A stretch of 38,430 nt of DNA from a virus (Duplodnaviria; Caudoviricetes), in IMG/VR virus record IMGVR_UViG_3300005058_000013, positions 1-38,430 of that record. One strand, given 5' to 3'. Position numbers and translations under genes: made by a program. The notes below the pieces were generated by a model. It was not told where the DNA came from. It searched no databases and worked only from the letters and a program-made list of their open reading frames with translations. The stretch's first letter is position 1, and each line of letters begins with the position of its first letter. Below are positions 1-38,417 of this stretch, piece after piece.

Positions 1-378
1 GGTGACGGTTTTGAAAGCCTTGCTACCCTCGACGATTCCCGCAGTGTCAACAGTGAACGCCGGAAGATCCTCGGTAATCACTTCATCAGCATAGTTCGTG
101 CCAGTGATCTTGACCTGAACAGCCTTGATACTGCCGGCAGTCCCGCCAGCAGTTGCAGTGATGTTGCGCGGGACGGCCGGGTTGGTGAATCCCGTCGTGA
201 TTACGGTGGCGGCTGTAGACGTGGCTGCGGCCGCAAGAACGCCAGCTGCCGCAGCAGCCACCGCGTTCGCAGCACTCACCTGGAAATGGGCCATGAAGGC
301 GTGGTCAACACTCACGCCTTCAACTGCAGTTTGCATTACCTGCCCCAATTTGGGGTTAAACGGATAAAATCCGCCCAT
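1..378 (-). CDS. Capsid-associated/head decoration-like protein, 3' end cut by window edge
   Basis: Not in the ORF track. ATG at 378 after an AAGGATG RBS; open frame MGGFYPFNPKLGQVMQTAVEG...TNPAVPRNITATAGG...GTNYADEVITED runs to position 1; lies directly downstream of the major capsid gene. Confidence 0.6.
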   Translation of the reverse strand, partial: MGGFYPFNPKLGQVMQTAVEGVSVDHAFMAHFQVSAANAVAAAAAGVLAAAATSTAATVITTGFTNPAVPRNITATAGGTAGSIKAVQVKITGTNYADEVITEDLPAFTVDTAGIVEGSKAFKTVT

Positions 379-8231: not shown

Positions 8232-8251
8232 CCGCCGAATACCTCCCCGCC

Positions 8252-8355: not shown

Positions 8356-8357
8356 AC

Positions 8358-9428: not shown

Positions 9429-9431
9429 GTC

Positions 9432-9692: not shown

Positions 9693-9701
9693 CGCCTCCC
9701 A

Positions 9702-9920
9702 TCAGTGCCTATAAACCGGCGGTGCCGCAGCATTCATCCTGAAACAGTGGCACGCCTTGCGGTTCGGCTTTACCTCGACCGCCACCGGCTTGCCGTCAAT
9801 TTTTTCAAGGTCGTAGCACACTGGTTTGCCGGGACCGTAGGCTTTGACGTTCATTCCCAAACACTCGCGGCAGGTCAGTACCGGGTCGTTCTTTCCTCTT
9901 CTTGGGCTTAATCCGAACAT
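9702..9920 (-). CDS. Small Cys-rich hypothetical protein
   Basis: AGGAGGTG RBS before ATG 9920; TCRECL...C...ACHCF. Confidence 0.65.
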   Translation of the reverse strand: MFGLSPRRGKNDPVLTCRECLGMNVKAYGPGKPVCYDLEKIDGKPVAVEVKPNRKACHCFRMNAAAPPVYRH

Positions 9921-9986
9921 GGTGGCACCTCCTGTTATTTTTCTCACCCTCGTCACGCGCACGCGCGAGGGGAAAGTAAACAATTG

Positions 9987-10340
9987 TCAAGTCAAAATAG
10001 CCGCAATATCAATAATAGTTCTCCGTTCGTTCCCCTTGACGATATGCCATTTCACGTCCACCCAGTCATTCCGGTCATCCTGAATGATTCCGGCATTTAC
10101 CAGCCCGTCCAGAATCATCTTCGGCGCGTAGTTGTCGATGTCTCGCCGGCGCACGACCGGAAATATTAGCGTAATGTCGACCCTAGCCAGGTGATACCGA
10201 GGCTGTCCGGCCTTGGCCGACAAGCAGGCCGCCTTAATCAGCCATGCCCATTCGTGATTCATTGCCTGCCGCACCGTCCAGTGCTGCCGCATCCACTTGT
10301 TCAGACTGGGCGGAGTCCCCGCGATTTCAAGGCGGATCAT
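9987..10340 (-). CDS. rusA: RusA-family Holliday junction resolvase
   Basis: PPSLN, RRRDIDNY..K.ILDGLV.AGIIQDD catalytic pattern. Confidence 0.88.
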   Translation of the reverse strand: MIRLEIAGTPPSLNKWMRQHWTVRQAMNHEWAWLIKAACLSAKAGQPRYHLARVDITLIFPVVRRRDIDNYAPKMILDGLVNAGIIQDDRNDWVDVKWHIVKGNERRTIIDIAAILT

Positions 10341-10903
10341 GCGCTCATCCCTGAAGCCAGAGCCTTCACGACATCTGCCATGCCGGACAGTTCCAAAGCC
10401 TTGTTTAATTCCTGACTTTCGCGGTGTTTGCTGCGCATTGACTCATAAATCCGCATAAAATGGGCACGATCTGCTTCAGGATTCTCGCTCACACAAAGCT
10501 GCCGCCACCCGATGGCCCGCACTGCTTTCTGCACCGTATCGCAGCTGAACGTTGGCGCCCGGTATATTCCTGCATCGCAAACCTGCTGAGTTACTTCTGC
10601 CCAGGCTTCAGCTGCCGTTGGTAGTTTCGGATTGCGCGGATCCAGTTCATGAGCCGCCGCCACCAGCATCGCCACCGAGGGAAAGAACTCCGATTCGCGG
10701 CAAACCTTGACGATGGCCGCCTTCAGAATCTCAACCGGAATGTCCCGCATCATCATCGCCCATGACTTGGCAATCGGCTCCGGATCCTTCGCCTGCATGG
10801 CCGGATATGAACTGGCAGCCAACGCCACCAATACCAGCATTTGTTTTTCCGCCACCGTAAGTCTTGGCCTAGTTGATTCACTGGTCATCATCATTCTCAC
10901 CAT
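10337..10903 (-). CDS. Replicative helicase loader/inhibitor (SPP1 G39P-like)
   Basis: SYP...W.MMMRDIP...A.....SEFFPSVA, PTAAEAWAEV, AIGWRQLC..EN...RAHF; follows the initiator gene; start may be ATG 10894. Confidence 0.8.
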   Translation of the reverse strand: MVRMMMTSESTRPRLTVAEKQMLVLVALAASSYPAMQAKDPEPIAKSWAMMMRDIPVEILKAAIVKVCRESEFFPSVAMLVAAAHELDPRNPKLPTAAEAWAEVTQQVCDAGIYRAPTFSCDTVQKAVRAIGWRQLCVSENPEADRAHFMRIYESMRSKHRESQELNKALELSGMADVVKALASGMSA

Positions 10904-11687
10904 CCCGCAAAAGATCTTCCGCTTTCTCCATCAGTGTCTTGGGCCGATCTCGCAACTGTCGCTGCCGATCAATCTCCCACGGTCTCTGATCCAATCGATA
11001 CTTTGACACCCACGTTTGTAGAATTTTGTCGACGTACTTGATCGAATGGGCCTTCGACAGCGCAGCCTGCTTTATCGCTTCAAGTATCCAGTCCCTCGGC
11101 ATCGTTTCGATCCAGTCCCGAATCATATCCGCCTCGACTTGGTTACTCACCGGACAAATATCCCTCGAAAGTGATTCAACAACATCATCAAAAACTGACC
11201 TGTGGATAACTTCTGGTTCAACTTCCTCGTTGGGGGGTAAGGGGGATGATGTTGTTTCTGACTCTGGTATCTGGTTTCTGGTATCTGGTATCTGGTATGG
11301 TTGGGCATCCGCTGGATATTCGTTTAACGGTTGCTCAACGTCCGTTGAACGTCCGTTCAATCTTCGTTGGGCAGAAGCGATTCCGGCCGCTTTTGCCTGC
11401 TCAGATTTGGTGGAAAATCGATTTAATTCTTTTTCAATTCGTTTATGGACCCAGTTCGTTCCGTCGTCTGTAAAAAATTCTGCCAACGTATCGCGAACGG
11501 ACGTCCATTCTTCGTTGGACATCCGTGCAATGCGCGCTAAACGTCCGTTGGAATTTGGCAAGGGTTTTCCGCTTTGCCAATAATGCATGATCAGCAGCAT
11601 ATAGGCACCATGCTCGAGTGTGGAAAGATGAGCGGTATCGCCCAGGTAATCACCGATGTAAAGCTGCATATATGGTTTACTCGACAC
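10878..11687 (-). CDS. Replication initiator: DUF1376 (YdaU-like) N-terminus plus DnaD-like C-terminus
   Basis: PYMQLYIGDYLGDTAHLSTLEHGAYMLL (DUF1376) and ILEAIKQA.....SIKYVDKILQTW (DnaD); GTG start after GAGGGTG. Confidence 0.88.
   Translation of the reverse strand: MSSKPYMQLYIGDYLGDTAHLSTLEHGAYMLLIMHYWQSGKPLPNSNGRLARIARMSNEEWTSVRDTLAEFFTDDGTNWVHKRIEKELNRFSTKSEQAKAAGIASAQRRLNGRSTDVEQPLNEYPADAQPYQIPDTRNQIPESETTSSPLPPNEEVEPEVIHRSVFDDVVESLSRDICPVSNQVEADMIRDWIETMPRDWILEAIKQAALSKAHSIKYVDKILQTWVSKYRLDQRPWEIDRQRQLRDRPKTLMEKAEDLLRDGENDDDQ
11263..11550. repeat. Iteron-like repeats inside the initiator gene (putative origin)
   Basis: TCTGGT(A/T) x5 in tandem at 11263-11297; AACGTCCGTT twice in tandem near 11337-11357, again near 11540, and inverted (AACGGACGT) near 11496. 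Confidence 0.6.
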
Positions 11688-11721
11688 GTTTTCACCCTCA
11701 TTCAAAAACGTTTAGGCACTA

Positions 11722-12606: not shown

Positions 12607-12626
12607 TCAGGTTTCCCCCTTTGTTT

Positions 12627-14528
12627 TTATGAAGCTACCTTTTCTGCCGGCGACAAACGTCGCAGGAACTCATTAGCGAACTTACTGACATCGGCCGGTG
12701 CGGAGCAATTGCAAAACCCATGCAGCTGCACTATTTTTAGTTTCCGCAGATCGATCTCCATTGTAAAAAACGGTTTACTAGGTTCTTCCAGCTGGCGTAT
12801 AAAGAACACCATGCGCTCGCCCTTTAAATGGTTTTTGTAATAAGTGTCGCCGCCTACGCAATGCTTCAACGATTGTCCTTCGGTTATGAAATCACTGCGC
12901 GTTTTCGGGAAAACAATCCCATATTTCCCCCTGGCATATTCCTTCATGCCTGCGTACAGTTTTTCTCTTGCCTGGGCAAAATTATCGTCCTCAATCTTGT
13001 GTTTGACCTTGTTAAACCTTTCCAGAATAACGTCATGGGCTGTCTTGATGTTCGCGGGGAAGCGTACGGATTTGCGCGTGATATCGACCCCAAGAGAACC
13101 ACACATACTGATGTAGTCTTTGTACCATATGAGCAGTTCGGCGCTATTCGCCCTGCCGATTGCCTTTTTCTGTTTTGTAAAATAGTTGGCAAAGCGTTCA
13201 AAGCTCATTTGCTCCAAAATATCAGTGATTGCGGCCATGTGGCCGGCAAGGTGTAGCGCCCTGAATTTCAAAAAGCTTTCCTCGTCAACCCATGTTTTTG
13301 AAGCCTTCACAATCTCATGCTCAAACTGGGTAATGTTGAATTTCCGGTATAAAGGCAGATATTGCTTACTGACTCCTAAGACATCGGTAAAACTTTTTCC
13401 GTGTAATTTTTCCAAATACCCGCCGGACGTGCTCACTAACTGAGTAAGTCCAAGCTTGAAAAGATACTCTGCAAATGGAATGTTTTTTAGGTTGTCGAGC
13501 AGCCGCGCAAAGGATATCTCTCCTGCGTCGCGCAATCCTTCTTCCAGATTCACGCGGTAATACGACTCGCCAAATACATCCTTGAGGTTGTTGGTATACA
13601 GGTGCGCTGCTTTGTAATTGACTTCCCCGTTGTTTTTGCGATACCAGTTATACCCCCATCCCATATTCGGCTGGTAAGCATACGCATATATCACACGGCC
13701 CGACGCGTTATTGAGGTGAAGATTATAATAATAATCATCAAAGGTATATTGGCAACGGGGATCTCCGTCCGCGAAGATACGATTCGCGTTTGCCCACCGA
13801 ACAAGCAATTGACCATCTACCTTATGTGCAATACAGATTTGCTTTTTATCGGCAATGGTTGACTTTATCCATGAGCCTCGGTATCTTGCCATTATGCCGC
13901 ACTTCGGGCACGTTCCTGTTTCCCCGGACCTTTTCCCCTTATCCGTCATGAAGTGCTCGCGGCAATGGCCACACACGCAGTGACGGGTTCCCTTTACTAG
14001 CGGATCCATAAAAATATAACTGTGATCAAAGACATGCTGCTCGCAATAATCCGGTAAATCGGCAGGTAAATCTGGATACATGGCAAAGTGATCTTGCATC
14101 TTTGCGTATTTCCGGTCCATGGCATTCTGCCGCTTTTTCGAGTAAATATCATGAATAAACCCGTATAGTACAGAGCCAAGGCTGAAAATTCCGCCATAGC
14201 AATTGCCGTGAAGAAAATCCCGAGCAATAGTCATATCCTCTTCCGTGCCATAAATATTCCCGTAACCAAAAGTCGAAGACGGAAGTCTCATAAACCAATT
14301 TTCTGTCGGCCATTCTTCACAGAGCAGTACGTTCTTCCCGTCAGAGCAAAAGCGCAGCTTCAACATACGTTCATTTTTATCAAATACGTCCGCAACAAAT
14401 ACATTGCCACTGCGCGGTAAATTAACGATTTTCACAACGCCGACAAAAGAGAAGTTCTTGACAGCCTCATTTTTAAATTGTGGATATGCCAGCGCCGGGA
14501 TCCCGTTCAGTTCACTTTTCACAAGCAC
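12627..14528 (-). CDS. PcfJ-like domain protein
   Basis: Zn ribbon CGHC..CPKCG; YKDYISM....G.D......FP.N...AHD; EGQSLKHCVG; FFIR....P.KPFFTME; VQLHGF.N. Confidence 0.88.
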   Translation of the reverse strand: MLVKSELNGIPALAYPQFKNEAVKNFSFVGVVKIVNLPRSGNVFVADVFDKNERMLKLRFCSDGKNVLLCEEWPTENWFMRLPSSTFGYGNIYGTEEDMTIARDFLHGNCYGGIFSLGSVLYGFIHDIYSKKRQNAMDRKYAKMQDHFAMYPDLPADLPDYCEQHVFDHSYIFMDPLVKGTRHCVCGHCREHFMTDKGKRSGETGTCPKCGIMARYRGSWIKSTIADKKQICIAHKVDGQLLVRWANANRIFADGDPRCQYTFDDYYYNLHLNNASGRVIYAYAYQPNMGWGYNWYRKNNGEVNYKAAHLYTNNLKDVFGESYYRVNLEEGLRDAGEISFARLLDNLKNIPFAEYLFKLGLTQLVSTSGGYLEKLHGKSFTDVLGVSKQYLPLYRKFNITQFEHEIVKASKTWVDEESFLKFRALHLAGHMAAITDILEQMSFERFANYFTKQKKAIGRANSAELLIWYKDYISMCGSLGVDITRKSVRFPANIKTAHDVILERFNKVKHKIEDDNFAQAREKLYAGMKEYARGKYGIVFPKTRSDFITEGQSLKHCVGGDTYYKNHLKGERMVFFIRQLEEPSKPFFTMEIDLRKLKIVQLHGFCNCSAPADVSKFANEFLRRLSPAEKVAS

Positions 14529-14540
14529 GCGAACCGCCCC

Positions 14541-14930
14541 CTATTTCAACAATTCATCAAGGCTGACATTAAAATCTGCTGACTTGATTACCGCAGCCGG
14601 CTTGACTGTATCCGGCGTTACCGCAATCGTCTCGCTGGGCCCTCCAAATGTCGGCGGCACATAGCCAGTGATGCCGAAGTATTTCAGGATAATCGCCAAT
14701 CCTTCTTGCGGTGCGATCACGGCGACATTGTTGACCTTGTTTTTCGATGCTTCGGTACGCATGGCTTCCAGGCTTTTGGCGATCGTTTTGTCAGCTGCAG
14801 ACACCTGGTGCGCAGCTGACGGGTTTTTCTCGACATACGCGAGCAGGAACGATCCAACGGCCTGAATATACCCGTTGGTTATATTGGCATCCATTTCGGC
14901 TTTGATTTTTGCAATGGCTGTATCTTTCAT
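14541..14930 (-). CDS. PcfK-like protein (AcrIIA9-family-like)
   Basis: AIAKIKAEM...YIQAVG.FL...KTI..SL..M..EA.K......AV.....G..I..KYFG pattern, acidic SLDELL end; directly upstream of PcfJ. Confidence 0.65.
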   Translation of the reverse strand: MKDTAIAKIKAEMDANITNGYIQAVGSFLLAYVEKNPSAAHQVSAADKTIAKSLEAMRTEASKNKVNNVAVIAPQEGLAIILKYFGITGYVPPTFGGPSETIAVTPDTVKPAAVIKSADFNVSLDELLK

Positions 14931-14951
14931 TGTCTTCAACTCCTTTCAAAT

Positions 14952-15036
14952 CTCTGGGGCCGGGATTCGAACCCGGTTGCAAAGTACTTTATGCCAGGTT
15001 TGGAGCCCTCTCGTGTTCCCACCACAACGCCCCAGA
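14952..15036 (-). tRNA. Atypical tRNA-like element, anticodon CCA (Trp), long variable region, no encoded CCA end
   Basis: Acceptor stem TCTGGGG/CCCCAGA plus G73, D-arm, anticodon loop CTCCAAA, perfect T-arm CCGGG-TTCGAAT-CCCGG; intergenic. Confidence 0.6.
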
Positions 15037-15039
15037 TTG

Positions 15040-15210
15040 TCACGCCGATTTCTTTTTCGCCTTCTTCGGCGGCGGATCAAACAGGCTGATGCAAAACTTT
15101 TCAACATAGTCCTGGTGCTTTCGGTAACAAACCTTACCGAAGCCTCTGGCAACAGATTCTGGATCTTTCAGCTTGCGGTTGCACCGGTCGCAGCGCGGGA
15201 TATCAGCCAT
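15040..15210 (-). CDS. DUF6011-like small Zn-binding protein (56 aa, not in ORF track)
   Basis: Manual translation MADIPRCDRCNRKLKDPESVARGFGKVCYRK...; GGGAGG RBS; overlaps the end of the upstream gene. Confidence 0.8.
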   Translation of the reverse strand: MADIPRCDRCNRKLKDPESVARGFGKVCYRKHQDYVEKFCISLFDPPPKKAKKKSA

Positions 15211-15688
15211 GATCTTTCCCTCCCGACAACATCGGCAGCATTGCCGGCATTTGTCCTGTCATGTACGCCTCGAGGATCTGCGGCTGCATCATCTGCCCAA
15301 CCGTCTGCCCGTTCGGTAACAGCGTGTGTGCTTCAAACGCTTCCTCAAATGTCACAATACCAGACTCAACAGCTTCAAGAGTTGCCTTAACGTAAAGTGC
15401 CAATGCTCGCCATTTCTGTTTGCAAGCCTGCTCCCATGCAACGAGCGCCTGCCCTGGTGAGCGGAGCGTCCCGCGCTCCGGGGTATGCGTGAACTCGCGG
15501 CTCTTTTTGTCCGGTAGCGGCAACAGGAATCTGATGTGCCGGCCGTTGGCGACGAAGCCGATCACCGCCGCGTCATCTTCCCACCCATACATGAACTTTG
15601 TGGCGCCATATCGCACCAAGGTCTTTTCAATTTCCGACCGGGACCGATCGGCAGGAACGTCGGTGTTGGCTGCGTACTTTCCGCTCAC
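15203..15688 (-). CDS. Phage hypothetical protein
   Basis: 161 aa, GTGA-coupled to sbcC; YA..T.V...RSR.EIE..L.RYGA...WRAL.L.VKA.LEAVESGI.TFEEAF pattern recalled from other phage proteins. Confidence 0.8.
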   Translation of the reverse strand: MSGKYAANTDVPADRSRSEIEKTLVRYGATKFMYGWEDDAAVIGFVANGRHIRFLLPLPDKKSREFTHTPERGTLRSPGQALVAWEQACKQKWRALALYVKATLEAVESGIVTFEEAFEAHTLLPNGQTVGQMMQPQILEAYMTGQMPAMLPMLSGGKDHG

Positions 15689-18240
15689 GCCACCTTCACC
15701 TCCACCGACTCACCATCCGGCCGGAACTGGATCGTCTGCTCGAACGCCTCCTGCACCTGCTTCACGTGGCTGATCACCAGGACCATGCCAAACCGGCTTG
15801 AAACAGCCTTCACTGCATCCAGCACCAGCGGCAGAAACTCGTCGCTCTGACTGCCAAAGCCTTCGTCGATGCAGAGGAAATCGATCCGGCTGCCGGCACG
15901 TCTGGCCAGTAGTTCAGCCAAGGCAAACCTGATGGCAAAGTCAATGCGCAGCTGCTCACCGCCGCTGAATGTTTCATAGATCCGCTCGCCTGCCCAGTCG
16001 CCGACAATGATGTCCAGGGTCTCGGTCATGCCGGACTTCGACTTCAGTTCCCGCTGCGTTTCAAACCGAAGGTTGTGCCGTCCACCCGACATCTGACCAA
16101 GAATATCGTTCGCAATTCGTTCCAGTTCCGGTACCGCATTTTCAATGATCAGCGCCGGGATCCCGTCTCGGCCGAACGCCTTGACCAGCGTTTGCCACCG
16201 TGCGAGTTCCTTGGCCAGCGGTGCCATGCGGGAGACAATCTCTTCCCGCTCGGCAGCGTCCTTGTCCATGGCTTCGAGTTTGGCCTGCAGGGATCCGATG
16301 CGGATATTGACCGCAATAATGTCCTGGCGGATATTGTCCAGTTCCAGCTGCCTCTCCGCTAGCGCTTCCTGCCATTGGAACATCAGTCCACCCTCGGGGG
16401 CCGTATCAAGATACTGCTGATTCAGTTCGGCTATTCGATTTTTCAGCGATTCAATTTCGGCATCGAGGGAAGCAATCAGTTCTTGCGCTGATTTCTGCTG
16501 TTCCCGAATCGCCGGCAGCATCTCACGCTGCTTGACGAACCGTTCCAGCTTGGCCAGCCGTTCCGACAGCGCCGGCAACTCGGCCAGTTCATCACGAAGC
16601 CGTTTGTATTCTTCCCGCAGCTGGTGACGCCGCTCAGTCAGTGCCGCCTGTCTGGTTTCAAGATCGGTGCGCTGCGCGGTCACCGTGGCGAGCAGCTGTT
16701 CGTCGCCGGCAGTCGCCAGCAGTTTCTGCTGCGCTGCATAGGAAGTGTCAAACTGCAGCTTCACCTTGCTATGCTCTTCCGGGTCATAGGCCAGTTCAGC
16801 AAGCATTTTTTCAGTAGCGGCCTGGGCGGCAACATGCTCGGCCAGCTCGGCATCCTTCTCCAGCTTCCATGCAGCAAAGGTCTTTTGCAGTTCAGGAATT
16901 TTCGCTCGGGCTTCCTTTGCGTCGGCTAAAAACCGGCACTCTGCCCGTTCGATATCAATGCACTTCGCATCAGAAAGCATGGCCGCCCTGTTTTCGTATC
17001 GGGCAATTTCGTCTTGTCGGGTTTTGGTTTCCAGCTCAATGAAGGATTTCTTGTTGGCAATGGATTTGTTGGCATCAGCCAACTGCAGCTGAGCCAGGTC
17101 ATGATTCAGCTTTTTCTCTTCCTGAGCGGTCAACTTTTGCGCATTGTCGGCGTGCGACCGGGCGGCCAGTTCCAGTTCCGGACGTTTGGCCAATTGCTGA
17201 TCGTAAATACTGATATCCAGGTGGACCTTTTTCAGCTGGCTTTCAATCCGTTCTAGGTCAATAGTGATCTGCTCTCCATCTCGGGCCAGCGATTTTCGCT
17301 GATCGTCTTTCGCTTGAAGCGCAGTCACCTGATCGCGGATCCTGTCATAGTCGGCAGCGGCAGTTAGGATGCCCTGCTCGTCCTGCAGATATGCATTGGC
17401 CTTGTCAAGCCGGTCCTGCTGAACCGTGCGGGCCTTTTCCTTCTGCCCGAGGTCAGTTTGCAGCGTTGCGGATTGTTTCAGCAACCCTTCGGCCTGCTCT
17501 TGTCGCAGTACCAGTTTTGCCAGTTCTTCCCGGCCGAAAGCGATTCCAGCTTCAGCTTTCTTTTCAAGCTCAACAGTATCCGCCAGCAGCATATTGGCCG
17601 AAACCAGCTCGTCTTGCATCGCCGACCGGTCGGCCAACCTGATATCGATGGCGGTCAGCATCGCCTTGTCGCGCTCGAGGGAAATATTTGTCGCCGACAC
17701 CTTGGCCCGGGCCGCGTCCTGTAGTGATTCATACTGGTCCAGCTGCAGCACCTGGGCAAGGATCGCCTTGCGCTGTCCGGCCGGTCGGCTGGTGAATTCA
17801 TTAGCCCGTCCTTGCAGAATCATGCTCGAGGAGGAAAATGTCTCTTCATCAAGTCCGAGCAGGTCGACAATCTTTTTCTGCGTCTCGGCGATCGATGCGC
17901 CGGATTCACTAGCCCATAGTTCACCAGACTGCCGCTGTAGTTCCAGAGTTGACTTTCCCTTGCCTTTGGTCGACCGGGTCCGGATCACGCGCCACACGCT
18001 GCCCTGGTGGTCAAAATCAAAGGTGACAGCGGCTTCGCTGGTGCCAGTCTTGACCATGTCGTCAGCGCTGGTTCCGGCCTTTGTGGTACCAAACAGGGCA
18101 AACATCGGGGCAATCGTAAAGGCAGTCGACTTGCCGGCACCGTTTGGCCCCGCGATTGCGGCGCATGTTACGCCAGTCAGGTCAATGTCGGCCGCCGGGA
18201 TGGCGCCGAAGTTTTTAATTGCAATCCGTAAAGGTTTCAT
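15685..18240 (-). CDS. sbcC: SbcC/Rad50-like SMC ATPase
   Basis: Walker A GPNGAGKS, Q-loop ILQG, long coiled coil with central C(6x)C hook-like pair, signature FSGGE, Walker B IDEGFG, ISH; start ATG 18240 after GGAGGTG. Confidence 0.93.
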   Translation of the reverse strand: MKPLRIAIKNFGAIPAADIDLTGVTCAAIAGPNGAGKSTAFTIAPMFALFGTTKAGTSADDMVKTGTSEAAVTFDFDHQGSVWRVIRTRSTKGKGKSTLELQRQSGELWASESGASIAETQKKIVDLLGLDEETFSSSSMILQGRANEFTSRPAGQRKAILAQVLQLDQYESLQDAARAKVSATNISLERDKAMLTAIDIRLADRSAMQDELVSANMLLADTVELEKKAEAGIAFGREELAKLVLRQEQAEGLLKQSATLQTDLGQKEKARTVQQDRLDKANAYLQDEQGILTAAADYDRIRDQVTALQAKDDQRKSLARDGEQITIDLERIESQLKKVHLDISIYDQQLAKRPELELAARSHADNAQKLTAQEEKKLNHDLAQLQLADANKSIANKKSFIELETKTRQDEIARYENRAAMLSDAKCIDIERAECRFLADAKEARAKIPELQKTFAAWKLEKDAELAEHVAAQAATEKMLAELAYDPEEHSKVKLQFDTSYAAQQKLLATAGDEQLLATVTAQRTDLETRQAALTERRHQLREEYKRLRDELAELPALSERLAKLERFVKQREMLPAIREQQKSAQELIASLDAEIESLKNRIAELNQQYLDTAPEGGLMFQWQEALAERQLELDNIRQDIIAVNIRIGSLQAKLEAMDKDAAEREEIVSRMAPLAKELARWQTLVKAFGRDGIPALIIENAVPELERIANDILGQMSGGRHNLRFETQRELKSKSGMTETLDIIVGDWAGERIYETFSGGEQLRIDFAIRFALAELLARRAGSRIDFLCIDEGFGSQSDEFLPLVLDAVKAVSSRFGMVLVISHVKQVQEAFEQTIQFRPDGESVEVKVA

Positions 18241-18247
18241 CGGCCGC

Positions 18248-18466
18248 TCACCTCCACGCCGCTTCGCGGGCATCAAAATTTGCACTTTCTTTTCGCATCT
18301 GGTCCAGGATTCCGAACCGGTTCGCGGTAATTCCCAGGCATTTGGCCGCATGTAAGCGGCTGGAGTCGGAAGCATCGACCACCGAAAGCGTTGCCGCCAG
18401 AACACTCAGCAGAAGCATTTTTGCATCGTGCTCGGTCAGGGTTTCAACCATGTCTCTTGCGTTCAT
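18248..18466 (-). CDS. Hypothetical protein
   Basis: 72 aa, GGAGGTG RBS, fills the gap before sbcC. Confidence 0.6.
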   Translation of the reverse strand: MNARDMVETLTEHDAKMLLLSVLAATLSVVDASDSSRLHAAKCLGITANRFGILDQMRKESANFDAREAAWR

Positions 18467-18467
18467 C

Positions 18468-18833
18468 CTACGCCACCTCCCAAATATGGACCACCGTAAA
18501 CACTTCAGACTGCGTTTGAGTGATGCAGATGCTTCCGCTTCCGACGGGTCCAATTCCCAACAATTCGATAATCCTTGCCTTCACGGTGTCCTGTTTCTTT
18601 TGCATAAAAACTCGGTGCGCGTCCCATTCCTCTTGTGTTTTATAGCAATCTCGGGAATTGGATGTGATAGACAAAAGCCATGCATTTAGCGCCACCCAGT
18701 TTAAGCGCACTACCGTCGTTTCGACCAAATACGTTTTGCCATGATTCGAATTGCTATCAACAAAAGCGCCTTTTGCGATGATTTGCAATTCAAACTGCTG
18801 ATTTTGTGACGTAGTAGTACGGGTCCCTCTCAT
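18468..18833 (-). CDS. Hypothetical protein
   Basis: 121 aa, GGAGGTG RBS, AT-richer than flanks. Confidence 0.6.
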   Translation of the reverse strand: MRGTRTTTSQNQQFELQIIAKGAFVDSNSNHGKTYLVETTVVRLNWVALNAWLLSITSNSRDCYKTQEEWDAHRVFMQKKQDTVKARIIELLGIGPVGSGSICITQTQSEVFTVVHIWEVA

Positions 18834-18835
18834 CC

Positions 18836-20017
18836 CTACGCCACCTCCATCAGTTGCGCGGTCATGGCCGCCAGTTCGTCAATTTCCTCGTCCGGAATCT
18901 CCTGGTTGCCAGCCCATTTCCTGATAGCCTCGATCGGGCCGAGCTGCTCGGTCACCTCGGCGTCACGCTGCCGGTCGGCGCGGGCGATGTCTCCCCGGAT
19001 TTCGGACACAAAAAATGCGCCTGCATCATAGAGCGACCTTTCCATGGCGCGGCGATCCAATTGTTTGTTCAGCGCATCGTCGCAAGCGTACACAACCCGG
19101 ACAATAGCGTTTCGAATATTGGCGATATCGTTCGCAAAAACGTGATTTCCGTTCACAAAGCTGGCAATATCGTCATTTTTTAAAGAAATAGTGAGATATT
19201 TTCGCGCCGGTGTGTCAACGAATTTTGACGCAAACTTTCCATCCCACTCGTTCAACTCGTGAATCCAGAACCCGGCCTCCTGCTTCTCATCATTGAACGA
19301 CAATCTTTCGGGGCTGCCGCTGTAGAATACAGCCCCGTTTTGCTGTGGCCGGTGGATATGCCCGAGGCATACCAAATCATAGCCATGGATAGCCTCCTGC
19401 GTTAAAATCGCCTCGTTCTGCATCAGAACATCTTCGAACCCCGTGTCGGCGAGGTCATAGGTCAGGTGGCCGACCAGAATGGCCGGCGTGAATGTTGCAG
19501 TTGCCAATAGCCGCTGACAAGCCTCGGTGATTTGTTCCGTCATCATCTGGTGCATGACGTGCGCCGGCAGTCCTCGGAAATCGTCTCTGTTTGCAAATGT
19601 CGACCGGTCCATGCCAGGCAGGCAGGCGATCGACACCGCGGCATGAGCGGTCTCAAAATCAATCATGTCCGTTCCGGTGACAATCCGCACGCCCGGCAGT
19701 TCAAACGCCTTCAGCAGTTCATAGGCGCTGATCGGGTCATGCGACGGCGTGCCGCTGATCACCAGCACTTCAATGCCGGCAGCCGAAAGTTTTTTCAACC
19801 AGGCCGCCGCGGCTATGATTTCCCGGCTGGCTTTATCCAGCGAAATATCTGCTTTACGGAACATGTCGCCGGCGACCAGCACCAGGTCAACTTGCTCGGC
19901 GATCATCCGATCGGCGGCCCAGTTCATGACATGGCAGATATCATCGAAGCGAGCGGATTGGCAGGGGCCTGGGTAACCAAGACCCCAATGAATGTCGGCG
20001 ATGTGCCCAATCTTCAT
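18836..20017 (-). CDS. sbcD: SbcD/Mre11-like metallophosphoesterase nuclease
   Basis: HIADIH, VAGDMF, SGTPSHD, LGHIH, YSGSPERLSF. Confidence 0.93.
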   Translation of the reverse strand: MKIGHIADIHWGLGYPGPCQSARFDDICHVMNWAADRMIAEQVDLVLVAGDMFRKADISLDKASREIIAAAAWLKKLSAAGIEVLVISGTPSHDPISAYELLKAFELPGVRIVTGTDMIDFETAHAAVSIACLPGMDRSTFANRDDFRGLPAHVMHQMMTEQITEACQRLLATATFTPAILVGHLTYDLADTGFEDVLMQNEAILTQEAIHGYDLVCLGHIHRPQQNGAVFYSGSPERLSFNDEKQEAGFWIHELNEWDGKFASKFVDTPARKYLTISLKNDDIASFVNGNHVFANDIANIRNAIVRVVYACDDALNKQLDRRAMERSLYDAGAFFVSEIRGDIARADRQRDAEVTEQLGPIEAIRKWAGNQEIPDEEIDELAAMTAQLMEVA

Positions 20018-20982
20018 CGTTTGTCACCGTCCATCGCCAAGTCAATGACCAAGTCTTGCAGATCCGCTTCGCTGACTTTGCTTAGCCAGTCGATGACCGC
20101 AGACGCTTCCGCCTTGGTCAGTTCGGAAATCGGCTTTTTCTTTTCCGCCAGGATAATGGCCTCGATGTCTGCGGCCTTGACGTTCTTTTTCTCGGCGTCA
20201 TATTGAATCTTGTTCTTCTGGGCAATGGTGATCATGCCGCCAGAGGCAGTCGGGTTAAAGGCATGTTTCTCGTCGGCCGCAGTCGGGACGCCTTTTTGCT
20301 TTTTAAGCTTTTGCAGGCGGCCGTCATCCTCTTTACCCATCCAGTCATCCATTTCATCAACGGTCTGGTTAAATATCCCGCTTGTTCCGGTTGCGGTAAG
20401 CGTTGCATCAACCAAGGCTCGTTTCTTCGCCATTTTCAGCACAGTATTCCATTGGTCAATAAGGTCGACATTGTCAACGCGGTACTTGGTGTACTCAACT
20501 TTTTGGCCATTTTTGGTTGTTTCCCATGTTTTAGCAACCAGTCCTGTCTTGTCGGTTCCCTTCGGCAGTTCATTTTCAAACAGCCAGCGATACCGGTATT
20601 TTGACTCGAAGCTGCTGCACTCCCCGACCCCTTCAGTGATAATGGCGCCGGTACCGCGGTGAATGATCTGCATGGTGACTTCTGCCAGGTAATACCCGGT
20701 ATTGAGGTCGCGAGTTTCCCGCTTATCTTTGACTAAAGATGAAAACCCGTAAACCGAAAGCAGTTTCTCCGCGCCAGGCTTGAATAGGCAAGGCTTGTCC
20801 GTCCCTGGGATCGTGTCATAGTCAAACCCTTTGTCCATGATGTCCTGCATGAAATTTTTGATCATAGACAGTTTCATTTTCATCTCGTTCAGCCGCGCGG
20901 CCATCTCGCCGGTCATGCCGCCGCTCATATCCATAATGCCACCAGACTTCTGTTCCGTAGTGGCCATTGCTCCGTTTGCCAT
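20014..20982 (-). CDS. Conserved phage protein, putative DNA annealing/recombination protein
   Basis: DY..IPGTDKP.L.KPGAEKL, EG.G.CSS.E.KY, NT.LKMA.KRALVDA motifs; sits in the usual annealing-protein slot upstream of SbcCD; function is inferred. Confidence 0.6.
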   Translation of the reverse strand: MANGAMATTEQKSGGIMDMSGGMTGEMAARLNEMKMKLSMIKNFMQDIMDKGFDYDTIPGTDKPCLFKPGAEKLLSVYGFSSLVKDKRETRDLNTGYYLAEVTMQIIHRGTGAIITEGVGECSSFESKYRYRWLFENELPKGTDKTGLVAKTWETTKNGQKVEYTKYRVDNVDLIDQWNTVLKMAKKRALVDATLTATGTSGIFNQTVDEMDDWMGKEDDGRLQKLKKQKGVPTAADEKHAFNPTASGGMITIAQKNKIQYDAEKKNVKAADIEAIILAEKKKPISELTKAEASAVIDWLSKVSEADLQDLVIDLAMDGDKR

Positions 20983-21015
20983 GAACAAACCCTCCTCGTT
21001 GTACTTTCTTTGGTA

Positions 21016-21105
21016 TTGACGATATCAACCGTGCTTGATACACTTTTAGTGGTGGTTCTTTCCTTAGCGGCTTCTGTGTGACAGCACAGGAGCTGCTTCT
21101 TTTTG
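21016..21105 (+). ncRNA. Candidate OOP-like antisense RNA (promoter, ~55 nt, terminator)
   Basis: TTGACG(21016-21021)-17 bp-TACACT(21039-21044) with TGn extension; 13-bp hairpin AGCGGCTTCTGTG/CACAGGAGCTGCT followed by TCTTTTT; overlaps the 3' end of the XRE gene. Confidence 0.65.
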
Positions 21106-21504
21106 TGCCTGGTCGGCTGCAATCATCATTGCGAATATGGACCTGGCTACATCGGCAAGTTCACTGACCAACGCTGGATCCAAATCTCCGTCGCATGAAT
21201 CTTGCAGCAAACTTGCCTGGATTGCGTTTGCCTCTCCCTGTTCTTTCAGGTACCGGACTACAGTTCCGGCCAACCCGTCTCGGGGAACTTCCCATCCGCA
21301 TTTACGACCGATAGGGCATCTTTGTGCGCAGTATCGCAGTATCAGGTTCGGTTGCCTGTACACGTGGGCCATCGCCATTATCAGCGTTTGTTCCAACGGC
21401 GTTGTATTTTGCTCAATCCTGGCCAGCGTCCGCCGGTCCATGTGCAGATGATACGCCGCCATTTCCTGCGACAATCCGGCCTGTTCCCGGGCTTCTCTTA
21501 GCAT
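21064..21504 (-). CDS. XRE-family HTH regulator (CII-like position)
   Basis: LREAREQAGLSQE.AA..L....RTL.RIE HTH; YCAQRCPIG motif; GAGGGGGTG RBS; co-directional with the lytic genes. Confidence 0.85.
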   Translation of the reverse strand: MLREAREQAGLSQEMAAYHLHMDRRTLARIEQNTTPLEQTLIMAMAHVYRQPNLILRYCAQRCPIGRKCGWEVPRDGLAGTVVRYLKEQGEANAIQASLLQDSCDGDLDPALVSELADVARSIFAMMIAADQAQKEAAPVLSHRSR

Positions 21505-21536
21505 CGTTTTTCACCCCCTCTCGCTGTATGATGTTG

Positions 21537-21725
21537 TCAAGGAAGAAGAATCAGTATCAAGAAGAACGCCAGGATGGATGCCGCCGCGATGATCGCAAGT
21601 TTTCGCATGGTTTTCGGCCTGTAGCAGTTCGTGTTCAGCCGATGTTCCATGCAAATCGAACAGGGCTTCTGGTCCGGCGGCGTTTCAAAGTAATGGCATG
21701 ACAGACAATCTCTCGCTTCGCTCAT
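21537..21725 (-). CDS. Small Cys-rich protein with C-terminal TM helix
   Basis: MSEARDCLSCHY...PCSIC...LAIIAAASILAFFLILILLP; ATGA overlap with the upstream stop. Confidence 0.65.
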   Translation of the reverse strand: MSEARDCLSCHYFETPPDQKPCSICMEHRLNTNCYRPKTMRKLAIIAAASILAFFLILILLP

Positions 21726-21949
21726 TTCAGCAACGCCACCCATCCAGCAATCAGGCTCATACCGATCATGACGCCGATCGAGTTTTCAATCATCTTGCGC
21801 GGCGCTTTGCCTTTGCGGAAGCCGGGGATAGTGACCTGTTGCGCCAGTTTCTGATAAGCCCGATCAAAGCCTTTGTTTACCTCTTCGACCGGAAGTTCGA
21901 TCACCAATTCGGTAATATTGTGTTCCTTTTTTTCAACTGTAACTTTCAC
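21722..21949 (-). pseudogene. tig: Truncated host trigger factor (N-terminal ~59 aa) fused to a hydrophobic 16-aa tail
   Basis: MKVTVEKKEHN..EL.IE....V.K..DRAY.KLA.QV.IPGFRKGKAPR is the trigger factor ribosome-binding signature; AAAGGAGG RBS; similarity stops near 21773. Confidence 0.92.
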
Positions 21950-22021
21950 TTAATGTCCTCCTTTGAATCCTGCAGGAACTTTTCGGCAAGGAGCCGAAAA
22001 CAGCCCTTTGCATTGAATTTT

Positions 22022-22050
22022 ATTTTAACATTCTTGACAATAAAAAACAA
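22022..22050 (-). promoter_or_regulatory. Putative host tig sigma-A promoter
   Basis: TTGTTT(22050-22045)-17 bp-TAAAAT(22027-22022) with TGn extended -10. Confidence 0.6.
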
Positions 22051-22055
22051 TCGAC

Positions 22056-22084
22056 AAAGAAAAAGCCGGCAGTAATCTGCCGGA
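22056..22084 (-). terminator. Terminator after tRNA-Gly
   Basis: CCGGCAG-ATTA-CTGCCGG followed by CTTTTTCTTT. Confidence 0.75.
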
Positions 22085-22095
22085 ACATAATTTTC

Positions 22096-22170
22096 TGGAG
22101 CGGAAAACGAGATTCGAACTCGCGACCCTCGCCTTGGCAAGGCGATGCTCTACCGCTGAGCTACTTCCGC
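22096..22170 (-). tRNA. tRNA-Gly(GCC)
   Basis: GCGGAAGTAGCTCAGCGGTAGAGCATCGCCTTGCCAAGGCGAGGGTCGCGAGTTCGAATCTCGTTTTCCGCTCCA: canonical cloverleaf with encoded CCA. Confidence 0.97.
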
Positions 22171-22185
22171 ATCGTGACAGAGATT

Positions 22186-22215
22186 ATTTTAACTCCGGGT
22201 CGTTTTGTTTGTCAA
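22186..22215 (-). promoter_or_regulatory. tRNA-Gly promoter
   Basis: TTGACA(22215-22210)-18 bp-TAAAAT(22191-22186), ending 15 bp upstream of the tRNA. Confidence 0.7.
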
Positions 22216-22322
22216 GACCATAGCCACTGCACCAGCAATACGAGTCCTGCCAGGACCCATATCAGCATTCATGGGCTACAGTAATTAGAAAAGAACGACT
22301 TAATCCGGCTGAACATATGCAA
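22212..22322 (-). pseudogene. Small membrane peptide ORF with an in-frame TGA
   Basis: AAGGAGG (22330-22336), then TTG-H-MFSRIKSFFSNYCSP-TGA-MLIWVLAGLVLLVQWLWS-TGA, all in one frame. Confidence 0.45.
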
Positions 22323-22375
22323 GCAGCAACCTCCTTGCCAACGATTCACCCTGCCATTCAAAACTTTGTTTGATT

Positions 22376-22388
22376 TGGTGCGGGCGAG
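22376..22388 (-). other. tRNA 3'-end remnant, candidate att (attR-like) core
   Basis: CTCGCCCGCACCA resembles the acceptor 3' strand plus CCA of a tRNA starting GCGGGCG (Leu-like); lies at the boundary between phage-like and host-like DNA. Confidence 0.5.
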
Positions 22389-22530
22389 CCGGACCAACCT
22401 CTGCGCCAACTAATTAGCGAGTCTGTAATCTATGAATACCGCACTGGTATTGTGTCGCAGCAGCGCTTCATTGTCAGCAACAAGGAAAAACAATAATATG
22501 CGCTGGCAGGTTCCCTTCCTCTAAATATAT

Positions 22531-22566
22531 AAATAAAAAAAAGCCGCCTGCCGAAGCAAGGGGCTG
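22531..22566 (-). terminator. Rho-independent terminator
   Basis: AGCCCCTTGC-TTCG-GCAGGCGGCT followed by a T-run. Confidence 0.7.
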
Positions 22567-22733
22567 ACATTCGGGAATCCATTCACTTGACAAAAACACG
22601 CAAAAGTGTCACTTTACTTTCAAGAGTCTCTTTGAAAGTGATTTGATTGACTTTTACGGTCATCCAATATAATTCACTTGACCAAATCAGGTCAAGCAAC
22701 ATCGGTATTTTGCGAGAAAAAGTCAAGCAAAAC

Positions 22734-22765
22734 AAAAAAGCCCCGCCGGCCGAAACCGACGGGGT
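22734..22765 (-). terminator. Terminator of the late/lysis operon
   Basis: CCCCGTCGGT-TTCG-GCCGGCGGGG followed by CTTTTTTG. Confidence 0.8.
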
Positions 22766-22779
22766 AACCTATGGGGCTA

Positions 22780-23364
22780 TTACATTCGCGTCAACATGAT
22801 TCCGATTTTTGACTGTTCCGGTTTTTTCAGGTCAGCAACGCCCCATGCACCAAGATACCATCGTTTTGTTTTTGTTTTGGCTATCTGCCAATTCGCGCTA
22901 GCCAGCACAGCATCTGGGCCAAAGCCGACCTGCTGAAAATCTTTCGGATACGCCTTAATGTTATATACATTTAGATTTACCGGCTCATCCTTTTTGGGAG
23001 CCGGTTTTTCATTGGGACGCTTCGGATCCGTGACCATAACCATATCGGCGCCAGATTGCTTTCGAATCTTTTCAGCCATCTTTTCCCACGCAGACCCGGT
23101 TGTTTGCACAATCTGGTCAGGTGGTTTTGTTGCCGATCGCTCAACCGCTTGCGCAAGCTCTGCTGCCTGATACGAACTCAGCGGAACCTTAGCTGCCACC
23201 GCAGCCTGCTGCACTCCCTGCACAGTTTGAGCAGATTGCTGGGTGACTGCCACGACCGGCGGAGCTCTGAATTTGTCTGCAGCCCAGTGGTAAGCCATCA
23301 CTACAGCGACAACGCACAGCGTGACTGTCAGTATGCGGGCATGGATTTTAACTTCGCTGCTCAT
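22780..23364 (-). CDS. Membrane-anchored lysis-cassette protein (candidate spanin equivalent)
   Basis: N-terminal TM helix, Ala/Gln-rich helical middle, C-terminal alternating beta-strand pattern; last gene of the cassette. Confidence 0.6.
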   Translation of the reverse strand: MSSEVKIHARILTVTLCVVAVVMAYHWAADKFRAPPVVAVTQQSAQTVQGVQQAAVAAKVPLSSYQAAELAQAVERSATKPPDQIVQTTGSAWEKMAEKIRKQSGADMVMVTDPKRPNEKPAPKKDEPVNLNVYNIKAYPKDFQQVGFGPDAVLASANWQIAKTKTKRWYLGAWGVADLKKPEQSKIGIMLTRM

Positions 23365-23553: not shown

Positions 23554-24057
23554 TCACGTCTCCTTAAAATATTCCTGGGCATACTGCCGAGCCGCCTCTG
23601 GCGTGACCGTGCTGACATTGACCCCTGCCATGTATCCGGGGAACGCTTCCCGCACCAGCAGCGTCTGCAGGCCGCTACAATTGAACGATTCATCGTTGTT
23701 GATAAACCGATCAAAAATCGCAGCCACTTTGCCACCCAGCACGTCATGAGCGCCACCGATGATGCAATCATCAACGCCATAAGGTTGCCCGGCAAGCCAT
23801 AGCGCTTTGGCCGCCACCGCCTTGCGCTGTTCTTCGGTGATCTCCACCGATATGATGGATAACTCTGTTGCGTCATTGAACAGGTCTGGCGGCGAGAACC
23901 TCACTGCCGGCCGGACCGCTTCGACGATCATGCGGCTACCGTCGACATCGATCGCCAGCGCCGCGTGAGCGAATCTTGACTTTGTTGCTTTGCGGATCAG
24001 TGCCTCCGTTTCCGGATGCCGGCCACTTGATACATATATCAGATCCATTTTAGGCAT
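23554..24057 (-). CDS. Permuted NlpC/P60 (YiiX/YebB-like, peptidase C92) protein
   Basis: His before Cys: SRFAHAAL...IVEA...A..LAGQPYG...FNCSGL...VTPE. Confidence 0.8.
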   Translation of the reverse strand: MPKMDLIYVSSGRHPETEALIRKATKSRFAHAALAIDVDGSRMIVEAVRPAVRFSPPDLFNDATELSIISVEITEEQRKAVAAKALWLAGQPYGVDDCIIGGAHDVLGGKVAAIFDRFINNDESFNCSGLQTLLVREAFPGYMAGVNVSTVTPEAARQYAQEYFKET

Positions 24058-24650
24058 TACAGTTCCTCCCCTCTCAATAACCGAATTGCGTCTTGCTTTT
24101 CGTTTTCCCATCTTGCGAACAAACCGGGCCGCAGTGTCGGCGCTCCGCTCGACCAATCCGGATCATTGATTTTCGTGTCATATATATTCCGAATCCACAT
24201 TGCTGGATCTTCGTCATACGATTCGGCCAGCAATTCGCCAGCAGTCCCCGGTCCGTGCTGGATGGCGTTGCTGAACAAAACCGCATGTAGAGCAAAAGGC
24301 AGATTGTCCATGTCGACGCCCATTTTGCGAGCAGTCTTGGCAGCAGTTTCATAGTATCTGGGTATTACATACTGCTCTTGCATATCGCCAAACGCCGAAT
24401 CATTCTCTGCCAGCCAAAGCCATTGGCTTGAGAATTCCAGACTGCCGGGTTCCGACCGACTCAGCATGGCACCGAACGAAGATCCTCGATCATTCCGTTG
24501 CTGAAGCCATTTGACAAACTGATGTACGCTGCCGGTGTTGGTTGCCAGTTGGTATGTTCCATAACTGATACCGCCGGAATCTCCTTTACCTGTGCTGATC
24601 GTAGCCGGGCCACTGCCCTCGTATTTTTCCGACAAGATCCCCAGTCTCAT
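24057..24650 (-). CDS. Lysozyme-like endolysin (VgrG3 C-terminal-like muramidase)
   Basis: LG.LSEKYE...P.TISTG.GD.GG.SYG.YQL, W...A.....F...Q, S.AIQHG, GL..R..NEK.DA. Confidence 0.8.
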   Translation of the reverse strand: MRLGILSEKYEGSGPATISTGKGDSGGISYGTYQLATNTGSVHQFVKWLQQRNDRGSSFGAMLSRSEPGSLEFSSQWLWLAENDSAFGDMQEQYVIPRYYETAAKTARKMGVDMDNLPFALHAVLFSNAIQHGPGTAGELLAESYDEDPAMWIRNIYDTKINDPDWSSGAPTLRPGLFARWENEKQDAIRLLRGEEL

Positions 24651-25042
24651 TCCCTTACCTCCAGCGGCACAGCATTGCCGGCGTCGATGATCAGCCGCGA
24701 CAGCGCCTGCCCATCTTCGTTCTGCATCCGGATGCAGCCAAGCGTCGGATACCAGCCCTGCCGGGGCAGTTTCGGCTCATCCAGACCAGACCCGCCGCCG
24801 TGGATGTCCCTGCCCCTGTAATCACCGGTTGAAATGTAAAAAGTTCCGTATTCGTCGGAGTCTTCCGCTGGCGGCTCATCGGCCACCGCTGTATAACTCC
24901 CGACAGGCAGCGATTCATAGGGCTGGCCTTCGGTGTTTCGGCCACTGAAATAAGCATGCCTAGCTTCGTAGCTGGCGACAACTTCCTCACCGTCATAAGC
25001 GGTTATTCGCTGATCAGTGCGGCTAAATACAAGAGTTAACAT
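24647..25042 (-). CDS. L,D-transpeptidase (YkuD)-like catalytic domain protein
   Basis: LP.G.Y, RGRDIHGGG...PTLGCIRMQNED matches the YkuD His/Cys motif; alternative start GTG 25051. Confidence 0.8.
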   Translation of the reverse strand: MLTLVFSRTDQRITAYDGEEVVASYEARHAYFSGRNTEGQPYESLPVGSYTAVADEPPAEDSDEYGTFYISTGDYRGRDIHGGGSGLDEPKLPRQGWYPTLGCIRMQNEDGQALSRLIIDAGNAVPLEVRE

Positions 25043-25047
25043 GAGTG

Positions 25048-25254
25048 TCACCTCTCCAACATATCTTTGATGGTTTTTACATCACGGCCATCGCGGTCGC
25101 GGAGTTCACGATTGATTTGCCGTAGCTGCTCATTGGCTGCAGCCAGTTCCGGCGCATCGGGAGTTTGTTCCACCGCCACCGGTTCATGATCGCCAAACAG
25201 CTTGTCCGATACTGCCGGCAGCGGGATCTCGACTTTGATGTTGATAGGCTTCAT
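25048..25254 (-). CDS. Hypothetical protein
   Basis: 68 aa, AAGGAGG RBS, ATGA-coupled to the holin. Confidence 0.65.
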   Translation of the reverse strand: MKPINIKVEIPLPAVSDKLFGDHEPVAVEQTPDAPELAAANEQLRQINRELRDRDGRDVKTIKDMLER

Positions 25255-37842: not shown

Positions 37843-38145
37843 CTACACCTCCCGCAGAATGGCTTCCGTGTGCGTTCCCCATTCTTGTCGGTACTGCACA
37901 ATATAGGTTTTCGTCCCGTCCACCAACTGGTCGTTTATCGCAACTAGGCCGGGCGTTTCGATAAACGCCTTATGGGTACTGGTATCGACAATACCCATGA
38001 CGCCCCTGGCAGCATTGGCCGTGAGTGGCCATATCTCCCCGCGGACAGTCGACGAACCGGCGTATGAATTAACCGGCTCGCCAATTTCGTTTTCCGTTGC
38101 TGTCGGCTTCTTAATCGTCAGCGGCCGGCTGTATGGGAACCTCAT
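37843..38145 (-). CDS. Head closure/head-tail adaptor protein
   Basis: 100 aa; NEIGEP, TH..F, D..VDG..Y.V, HTE..L pattern and synteny. Confidence 0.75.
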   Translation of the reverse strand: MRFPYSRPLTIKKPTATENEIGEPVNSYAGSSTVRGEIWPLTANAARGVMGIVDTSTHKAFIETPGLVAINDQLVDGTKTYIVQYRQEWGTHTEAILREV

Positions 38146-38417
38146 CGCAAACTCACCATCCCTGCTGTAGCGAACTGCCGGCGGATTCTCATAAAATCGG
38201 GGCGGGTCATGGAGACGCCGCCCCTGGACATGCTGTTGAATTCGGTCGTTGCCGCAGAAGTCAAAGCATCATAGATCGCACCACGTATATCGACCGTCGA
38301 CACGGTATCGACAACAGTGGTGCGATCATCAACAAATGCCTGCAGTTCTTCATCGGTGAAGCAGTCACCCAGCACATGGCAGAGCCGCTTCATCTTTTGA
38401 ATATTCGTTTCAGCCAT
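38142..38417 (-). CDS. Head-tail connector-like protein
   Basis: 91 aa; FTDEELQAF.D and S.S.GGVS motifs; first neck gene; GGAG RBS. Confidence 0.65.
   Translation of the reverse strand: MAETNIQKMKRLCHVLGDCFTDEELQAFVDDRTTVVDTVSTVDIRGAIYDALTSAATTEFNSMSRGGVSMTRPDFMRIRRQFATAGMVSLR

Follow-up and report, generated by a model that had tools for sequence, protein, structure and literature searches.

A Sporomusaceae siphovirus genome carrying a host tRNA-Gly and trigger factor gene stub in its lysogeny slot, likely formed by lambda-bio-type aberrant excision

The virus record IMGVR_UViG_3300005058_000013, a single contig of 38,430 bp that we analysed over its whole length (the window), is a Sporomusaceae siphovirus genome. 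In the slot that holds the lysogeny module in related prophages, it carries a short piece of host chromosome ending inside the trigger factor gene, tig. We conclude that the record is likely a circle produced by aberrant excision of the lambda-bio type, in which a prophage joined its early region to the neighbouring tig gene.

The recognised genes of the record are all on the minus strand. A PHROGs scan of 48 ORFs returned a siphovirus set (terminase, portal, scaffold, capsid, connectors, tail, holin and RusA), as well as a replication initiator with its loader and an SbcCD-like pair. The replication, terminase, head, tail and lysis genes are all retained. The record is classed as linear and 81% complete, and the following genes mark its two ends and its replication module:

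1..378, minus strand: capsid-decoration-type gene, cut at the left end of the record after codon 126; homologues mostly run 78 aa further
10337..11705, minus strand: replication initiator (DnaD domain) and helicase loader, both retained
38142..38417, minus strand: head-tail gene at the right end of the record, located 3' of the capsid module in relatives (L097)

In the relative L097, whose capsid gene is 80% identical, homologues of both end genes come after the capsid gene, and the record can therefore be read as one circularly permuted genome. Eight of the ten window proteins searched were each found on two contigs, as was the tig fusion protein described below, the longest of these contigs being 38,667 bp. 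This length exceeds the window by 237 bp, equal to 78 codons plus a stop and thus to the missing end of the cut decoration gene. A remainder of 78 aa is present in 37 of 65 decoration homologues and in 23 of the best 25, many of which are redundant. Judged by two distant phages, the gap would instead be near 320 or 380 bp, and the decoration-gene remainder of the longer contig was absent among 48 matches. The 237-bp arithmetic makes it probable that the genome closes into a circle of about 38.67 kb, leaving no room for an integrase. An integrase in unseen DNA is unlikely because the longer contig adds just 237 bp.

Several other features of the phage were observed. A near-palindromic 10-mer occurs in three exact copies at 11337, 11348 and 11540, all within the replication initiator gene; the rest of the record has none. 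These repeats (11337-11549) appear iteron-like and would likely mark the origin. The phage-encoded SbcC-/SbcD-like pair at 15685-20017 (minus strand) is an end-processing nuclease, and one may speculate that it could itself favour microhomology joins. The lysis region at 23554-25051 (minus strand) holds three candidate wall enzymes in succession: a YkuD L,D-transpeptidase-like protein at 24647-25051, a protein with a VgrG3-like C-terminal domain at 24057-24650 and, below cut-off, a Peptidase_C92-like frame at 23554-24156. No named phage matched the early region.

Between the lysis module and the early genes, the following features were identified:

21782..22388, minus strand: host segment of 607 bp
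22096..22170, minus strand: intact host tRNA-Gly(GCC), the only tRNA called in the window
22376..22388, minus strand: last 13 nt of host tRNA-Leu(TAG), probable attR core
22389..22779, no strand assigned: non-coding phage DNA by the probable attachment core, with no match to the host tRNA locus and a 48-bp piece in common with the prophage of G004
22741..22764: terminator-like hairpin after the lysis gene at 22780..23364, in a region 92% like a prophage in G010
22780..23364, minus strand: gene that closes the phage lysis module, encoding 194 aa and assigned to no family

We aligned the segment from 22388 to 21782 with a Sporomusaceae metagenome-assembled genome (G001, locus L001), the best tig match in the genome collection searched, and found 605 of 607 bases identical. 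A further genome, G014, carries the window's base at both sites that differ from G001. Since G014 holds both differing alleles, the captured DNA has no demonstrable private change. This zero divergence makes the event recent and carries no sign of long propagation. The segment comprises the end of tRNA-Leu(TAG), tRNA-Gly(GCC) and tig codons 1-56, and these are contiguous in the host, where the order tRNA-His, Gln, Gln, Lys, Leu(TAG), Gly(GCC), tig, clpP, clpX, lon runs on one strand throughout (the names clpP, clpX and lon were assigned by reading translations). Host contigs from wastewater runs, four of which were aligned, stop matching the window at 21782/21783 and at 22388. Their loose end at 22388 continues into tRNA-Leu in three of the four runs (X1-X3). 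An earlier note, made from the letters of this DNA without database searches, had proposed that the slot holds a tRNA 3'-end remnant, a full tRNA-Gly(GCC) and other DNA of host origin; the remnant is now assigned to tRNA-Leu(TAG), the tRNA-Gly is intact and the comparison with host chromosomes that the note called for agrees with its proposal. A tRNA moron carried by the phage was considered and rejected, as the segment is host-identical and contains a tig stub.

Trigger factor fragments also turn up elsewhere. One is P0032, a 108-aa fragment, 78% identical, on a 25.8-kb contig and with an aberrant start and end. In the phage collection, 22 records match the tig N-terminus, of which the 20 listed (H1-H20) are unannotated and mostly short; these matches may be host contamination. 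In a separate protein search that gave 22 matches, five of which were read, we recognised no other tig-stub fusion.

At its inner end, the host segment runs into a small phage gene:

21537..21725, minus strand: phage gene, 62 aa, whose ATG overlaps the TGA of the fusion, likewise in a related prophage
21722..21949, minus strand: 75-aa fusion ORF, in which tig codons 1-56 run into the 19 final codons of a phage gene for a 33-aa membrane-type protein
21782..21791, minus strand: crossover zone, a 10-bp microhomology covering codons I-E-N that the parental phage gene has in common with host tig

The Trigger_N profile matches residues 1-60 of the fusion. A search of short proteins for fusion residues 36-75 gave one match from one candidate: P0101, a 33-aa protein found on five contigs that is identical to fusion residues 54-75 at 21 of 22 positions and has the residues I-E-N in common with tig (aa 54-56). 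A 292-nt contig of parental type from run X1 matches 21633-21791 with seven differences, its remaining 133 nt being unaligned. Host and phage contigs thus overlap exactly at 21782-21791, by 10 bp and in the same frame. Because the parental 33-aa gene and tig both encode I-E-N, the crossover lies within these 10 bp.

This position revises the earlier reading, in which about 59 codons of tig switched near ATCGGC (21773-21778) to a 16-aa tail. The contig ends and the comparison with P0101 exclude that breakpoint and set the crossover about 10 bp upstream of it; ATCGGC, about 10 bp past the crossover, is a second match of 5 bp that follows three phage-type bases. The start of tig was correctly recognised, its length is reduced to 56 codons and the purely phage tail is 19 aa long. 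The ATGA overlap of the fusion stop with the next gene can be read in the sequence as described, and the in-frame joint preserves the ATGA coupling that is present in the prophage of G001.

With the related prophage of G001 as a stand-in for the parent, 89 of 6.8e7 position pairs between the lysogeny module and the host flank have a 10-mer in common. On this count, an overlap of 10 bp at the joint is well beyond chance, though many other joints were possible. Another 33-aa protein, P0102, encoded on a 5,462-bp contig, was considered as the leftover module of the exact parent and set aside, since it differs from the window at three of 22 residues. Back-translated patterns of the small gene gave no match in one search and 13 in another, all unlike the window, and the exact joint pattern had no match in viral contigs.

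The earlier note had seen no integrase, excisionase or divergent repressor in the record, and profile searches agree. In six-frame searches of the record, the Phage_integrase, Resolvase, Recombinase, Peptidase_S24 and HTH_17 families had no match each (E<=1). As positive controls, tyrosine integrase, resolvase, serine recombinase, S24 and HTH_17 were detected in 14, 13, 6, 12 and 14 of 14 genomes, respectively. In two related prophages, those of G001 (contig C17) and G004 (IMGVR_UViG_3300033406_000008), int, CI, Cro and xis occupy the slot upstream of the same early genes. Both have the early-gene order of the window at 66-89% nucleotide identity over matched stretches, and in both a tyrosine integrase adjoins the 3' end of a tRNA. 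Unlike the window, they keep int, CI, Cro and the HTH_17 gene, and their sites are tRNA-Arg(TCT) and tRNA-Ala(GGC). The G001 prophage is 72-89% identical over most matched stretches of window positions 7435-21764, whereas its structural genes have no match to those of the window. Upstream of the shared early genes, it carries the HTH_17 gene, Cro, a divergent HTH-S24 repressor, accessory genes and an integrase beside tRNA-Arg. Beside that integrase, a gene with an NYN domain was also observed (L174:7676-8200). The G004 prophage follows the same plan, with a 47-bp attachment repeat in tRNA-Ala at both ends. The stretch absent from the window amounts to about 6.3 kb in G001; for G004, the coordinates give about 5.3 kb.

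One candidate regulator of the early region remains in the window:

21064..21504, minus strand: the only remaining XRE-type HTH protein (HTH_3), 146 aa, putative early-operon regulator

This protein is not the divergent repressor, because its gene is co-oriented with the early genes and its orthologues in G001 and G004 (66% and 60%) lie downstream of Cro. A CII-like role is possible. A fold search with its model (mean pLDDT 76) gave no match at E<=0.001; Foldseek returned a full-length but weak row to the CII of phage 186 (6VLI, E 0.42, TM 0.34), and rows to Stl repressors were equal. Sequence matches are confined to the HTH part, and the search found no relatives in viral contigs and two weak, unrelated loci in metagenome contigs. 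Relatives of the protein have a DG-R/K-ID motif in common, a motif of phage 186 CII-like proteins. At the end of the HTH gene, an antisense promoter-like site with a TG motif and a 14-pair hairpin (21016-21097, plus strand) was also noted, which could modulate early expression.

From its position at the border of phage and host DNA, the 13-nt tRNA-Leu(TAG) end is the probable attR core. The parental prophage that the earlier note expected next to tRNA-Gly and tig, complete with integrase and repressor, did not appear: the attachment core was present twice in none of 13 genomes, no integrase lay beside tRNA-Leu(TAG) in five genomes and no relative with an element integrated at tRNA-Leu(TAG) was found. 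A search for the attachment-arm pattern gave six matches in viral contigs, none resembling the window and none with a tRNA, and two matches in 401 genomes of the class, equal to the reversed control (two) and neither similar to the window. A search of C17:1-18000 did not reveal the attR of the G001 prophage. Among host relatives (L003, L293-L302), the spacer between tRNA-Leu(TAG) and tRNA-Gly varies from about 0.2 kb to at least 1.4 kb, which suggests an insertion-prone site, though one without an adjoining integrase.

The captured segment brings host expression signals with it:

22186..22215, minus strand: strong sigma-70-type promoter-like site before tRNA-Gly, agreeing with the consensus at 11 of 12 positions, with a -35 hexamer invariant in seven of seven aligned sequences
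22066..22083, minus strand: terminator-like hairpin with a T run after tRNA-Gly, conserved in relatives
22022..22050, minus strand: predicted tig promoter with a weak -35, a 17-bp spacer and an extended -10 (TG-n-TA[A/C]AAT)
21956..21961, minus strand: tig ribosome-binding site GGAGGA, invariant in aligned sequences

The predicted tig promoter was not listed by a consensus promoter scan, but its pattern, TTGTTT-17-TA[A/C]AAT with the extended -10, lies between the tRNA-Gly hairpin and tig in all seven aligned sequences. It points into the early operon, and no terminator-like site was found on the minus strand from 22056 to 12341. Over 5900-21000, terminator-like sites are no commoner than in shuffled sequence (21 versus 19.7). 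It is plausible that the early genes are read from the captured tig promoter and that the phage is thereby virulent. As tig, clpP, clpX and lon are all co-oriented, promoter capture is the default outcome of right-flank joints at this locus, and for this reason orientation alone does not show selection. The capture is therefore less of a coincidence than the earlier note suggested.

Taken together, the host origin of the segment, the parental gene, the in-frame microhomology and the relatives with an intact lysogeny module give the aberrant-excision geometry proposed in the earlier note support at the level of base pairs. We suggest the following sequence of events. The parental prophage probably occupied the 3' end of tRNA-Leu(TAG), which would place tRNA-Gly and tig, in the order found in the host, just outside attR. 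A break was likely joined through the I-E-N codons common to tig and the 33-aa early gene. If the two relatives are a guide to size, the join would have dropped about 5.3-6.3 kb, containing int, CI, Cro and the xis-like gene as well as the repressible early promoter. From then on, the fusion would be expressed from the predicted tig promoter and ribosome-binding site and, by way of the retained ATGA overlap, so would the early operon. Lacking operators, the variant would escape the immunity of the parent lysogen and multiply, and such multiplication would explain how a rare event became the assembler's path. We give even weight for and against the proposal that the molecule is a self-propagating, lytic-only variant blind to the parental repressor; loss of Cro feedback can cripple lytic growth in lambda.

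We consider it likely that the joint represents a real molecule. The first alternative, which we regard as unlikely but deserving of attention, is that the joint is a chimera of library preparation or assembly. A template switch within the 10-bp match would have linked tig to the early gene in a normal lysogen, and the assembler would have followed the chimeric path owing to amplification or low depth. The fusion protein is a one-member cluster from one source, and its two contigs may be one assembly filed twice. Six public runs were listed, no RNA run among them, each with 0.05-0.06 of the window's words; when four of the six were aligned, none of the 32 pieces listed (of 204) bridged the joint. 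The captured DNA lacks private changes, and the record is unclosed, as it would be at low depth. Chimeras made by multiple displacement amplification (MDA) prime at matches of 2-21 nt (PMC1855051). However, direct joints more than 10 kb apart make up just 58 of 475 such chimeras and mostly lack paired bases, 27.6% of them having at least two (PMC1855051). A random partner of tig would also rarely land in the first 6 kb of the adjacent prophage, and a lone chimera should carry less weight than the true tig and int paths. The break in the record falls in the head region rather than at the joint, so the assembler would have passed both branch points, and the joint lies at the place expected of aberrant excision. 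Moreover, 10 bp of overlap would not let a de Bruijn assembler make the join unless reads spanned it.

A real but defective circle is a second alternative that we hold to be rather improbable. This would be a by-product of the specialised-transducing kind, transient or copied and packaged only with the help of the induced parent, in which expression of the early genes from tig lacks strength, comes at the wrong time or, with Cro missing, escapes regulation. Helper dependence is found in many specialised transducing phages. The phage here has lost Cro and its early promoter and retains the origin-like repeats in cis, and the tig promoter has a poor -35 and was missed by the consensus scan. On the other hand, the extended -10 is conserved in seven of seven sequences, the genes for replication, packaging and lysis are all kept and one would not expect an assembly to be dominated by a product that is rare and unamplified.

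A tandem duplication in the lysogen chromosome, comprising the right 38 kb of the prophage with tRNA-Gly and the tig stub and collapsed by assembly into an apparent circle, is in our view very improbable. Microhomology-mediated duplications are common in bacteria and would give the identical joint sequence, and closure of the circle follows only from lengths. Yet the intact int-CI and tig-clpP paths should be at least as deep as the joint and break the contig there, and with read-through from the tig promoter, the second copy would be freed from repression and the lineage would die. A further candidate, two different prophages flanking tRNA-Gly and tig, is rejected, as the left-end head and right-end connector genes adjoin in L097 and the early half starts mid-gene.

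We then compared the preferred reading, aberrant excision of the parental prophage, with known systems. Lambda-bio specialised transducing phages, studied with the Spi- assay, form by illegitimate recombination when prophage and flanking DNA are joined at a microhomology of about 9 bp, so that phage genes by the attachment site are swapped for adjacent host DNA (PMC11372144); the joint here is of the same kind, at 10 bp. The window shares with them host DNA from beside the prophage (607 bp, contiguous from the tRNA-Leu end to tig), loss of phage genes from the opposite end (the int, CI and xis-like families, absent here and present in G001 and G004) and a novel joint at a short microhomology (21782-21791). 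As in a virulent derivative, the genes for lysogenisation, integrase and repressor, are absent and one HTH_3 protein remains. Whereas lambda-bio loses red and gam, the window loses the whole switch, Cro and the early promoter; lambda-bio keeps its own rightward early promoter. The host piece of the window also differs in being a tRNA and a promoter-bearing gene stub with an in-frame fusion joint, and the window is known as an environmental assembly, lambda-bio as isolates.

Promoters outside repressor control that drive early or replication genes have precedents in the lambda c17 and ri-c mutants and in lambda-trp fusions, although the former are laboratory point mutants and the latter constructed fusions, neither being a natural excision joint. 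In Lactobacillus casei, the insertion element that gave rise to the virulent phage phiFSV reportedly brought a new promoter with it. The source on phiFSV describes a natural one-step change to virulence of the prophage phiFSW by host DNA and, unlike the window, an element that moved into an otherwise whole phage with no excision of the lysogeny module (PMC10893365). Streptococcus thermophilus phage TP-778L, in the parts of its description covered here, is a lytically propagated, plaque-purified phage from aberrant excision with a truncated integrase; unlike the window, it arose by recombination between complete and truncated integrase genes because attR was absent, and those parts do not describe promoter capture (PMC3952083). 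General background on specialised transduction is given in sections of a further source (PMC13195806). In the literature searched (titles and abstract openings, with classical phage genetics thinly covered), natural capture of a housekeeping promoter by aberrant excision was not found. We conclude that the joint is a well-resolved, recent aberrant excision of a known type, unusual in its reach through the whole switch. Of the individual readings weighed, virulence gained through promoter capture would be the likeliest.

The value of the finding is bounded by its source in a single unconfirmed assembly, and aberrant excision is itself a textbook process. Lytic phages related to temperate ones are common, and the events that founded them have mostly been blurred by erosion; in the present case, the two parents of the joint are readable and the mechanism of the event is legible. 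Tentatively, and against our own leaning, the record might be a natural snapshot of a one-step conversion from temperate to virulent, able to sweep lysogens immune to the parent. A single microhomology join would then have deleted the whole switch and plugged the lytic operon in frame into a host promoter and ribosome-binding site, a possibility that we hold with equal reserve. When a metagenomic phage is called 'lytic' because it has no integrase, what lies behind the call can be a recent excision error or a chimera. An attR remnant, a host promoter and a gene stub in the lysogeny slot form a signature with which virus catalogues can be scanned. Genes downstream of tRNA attachment sites often face as the prophage early operon does, and captures of this kind could be a general, searchable route to lytic lineages.
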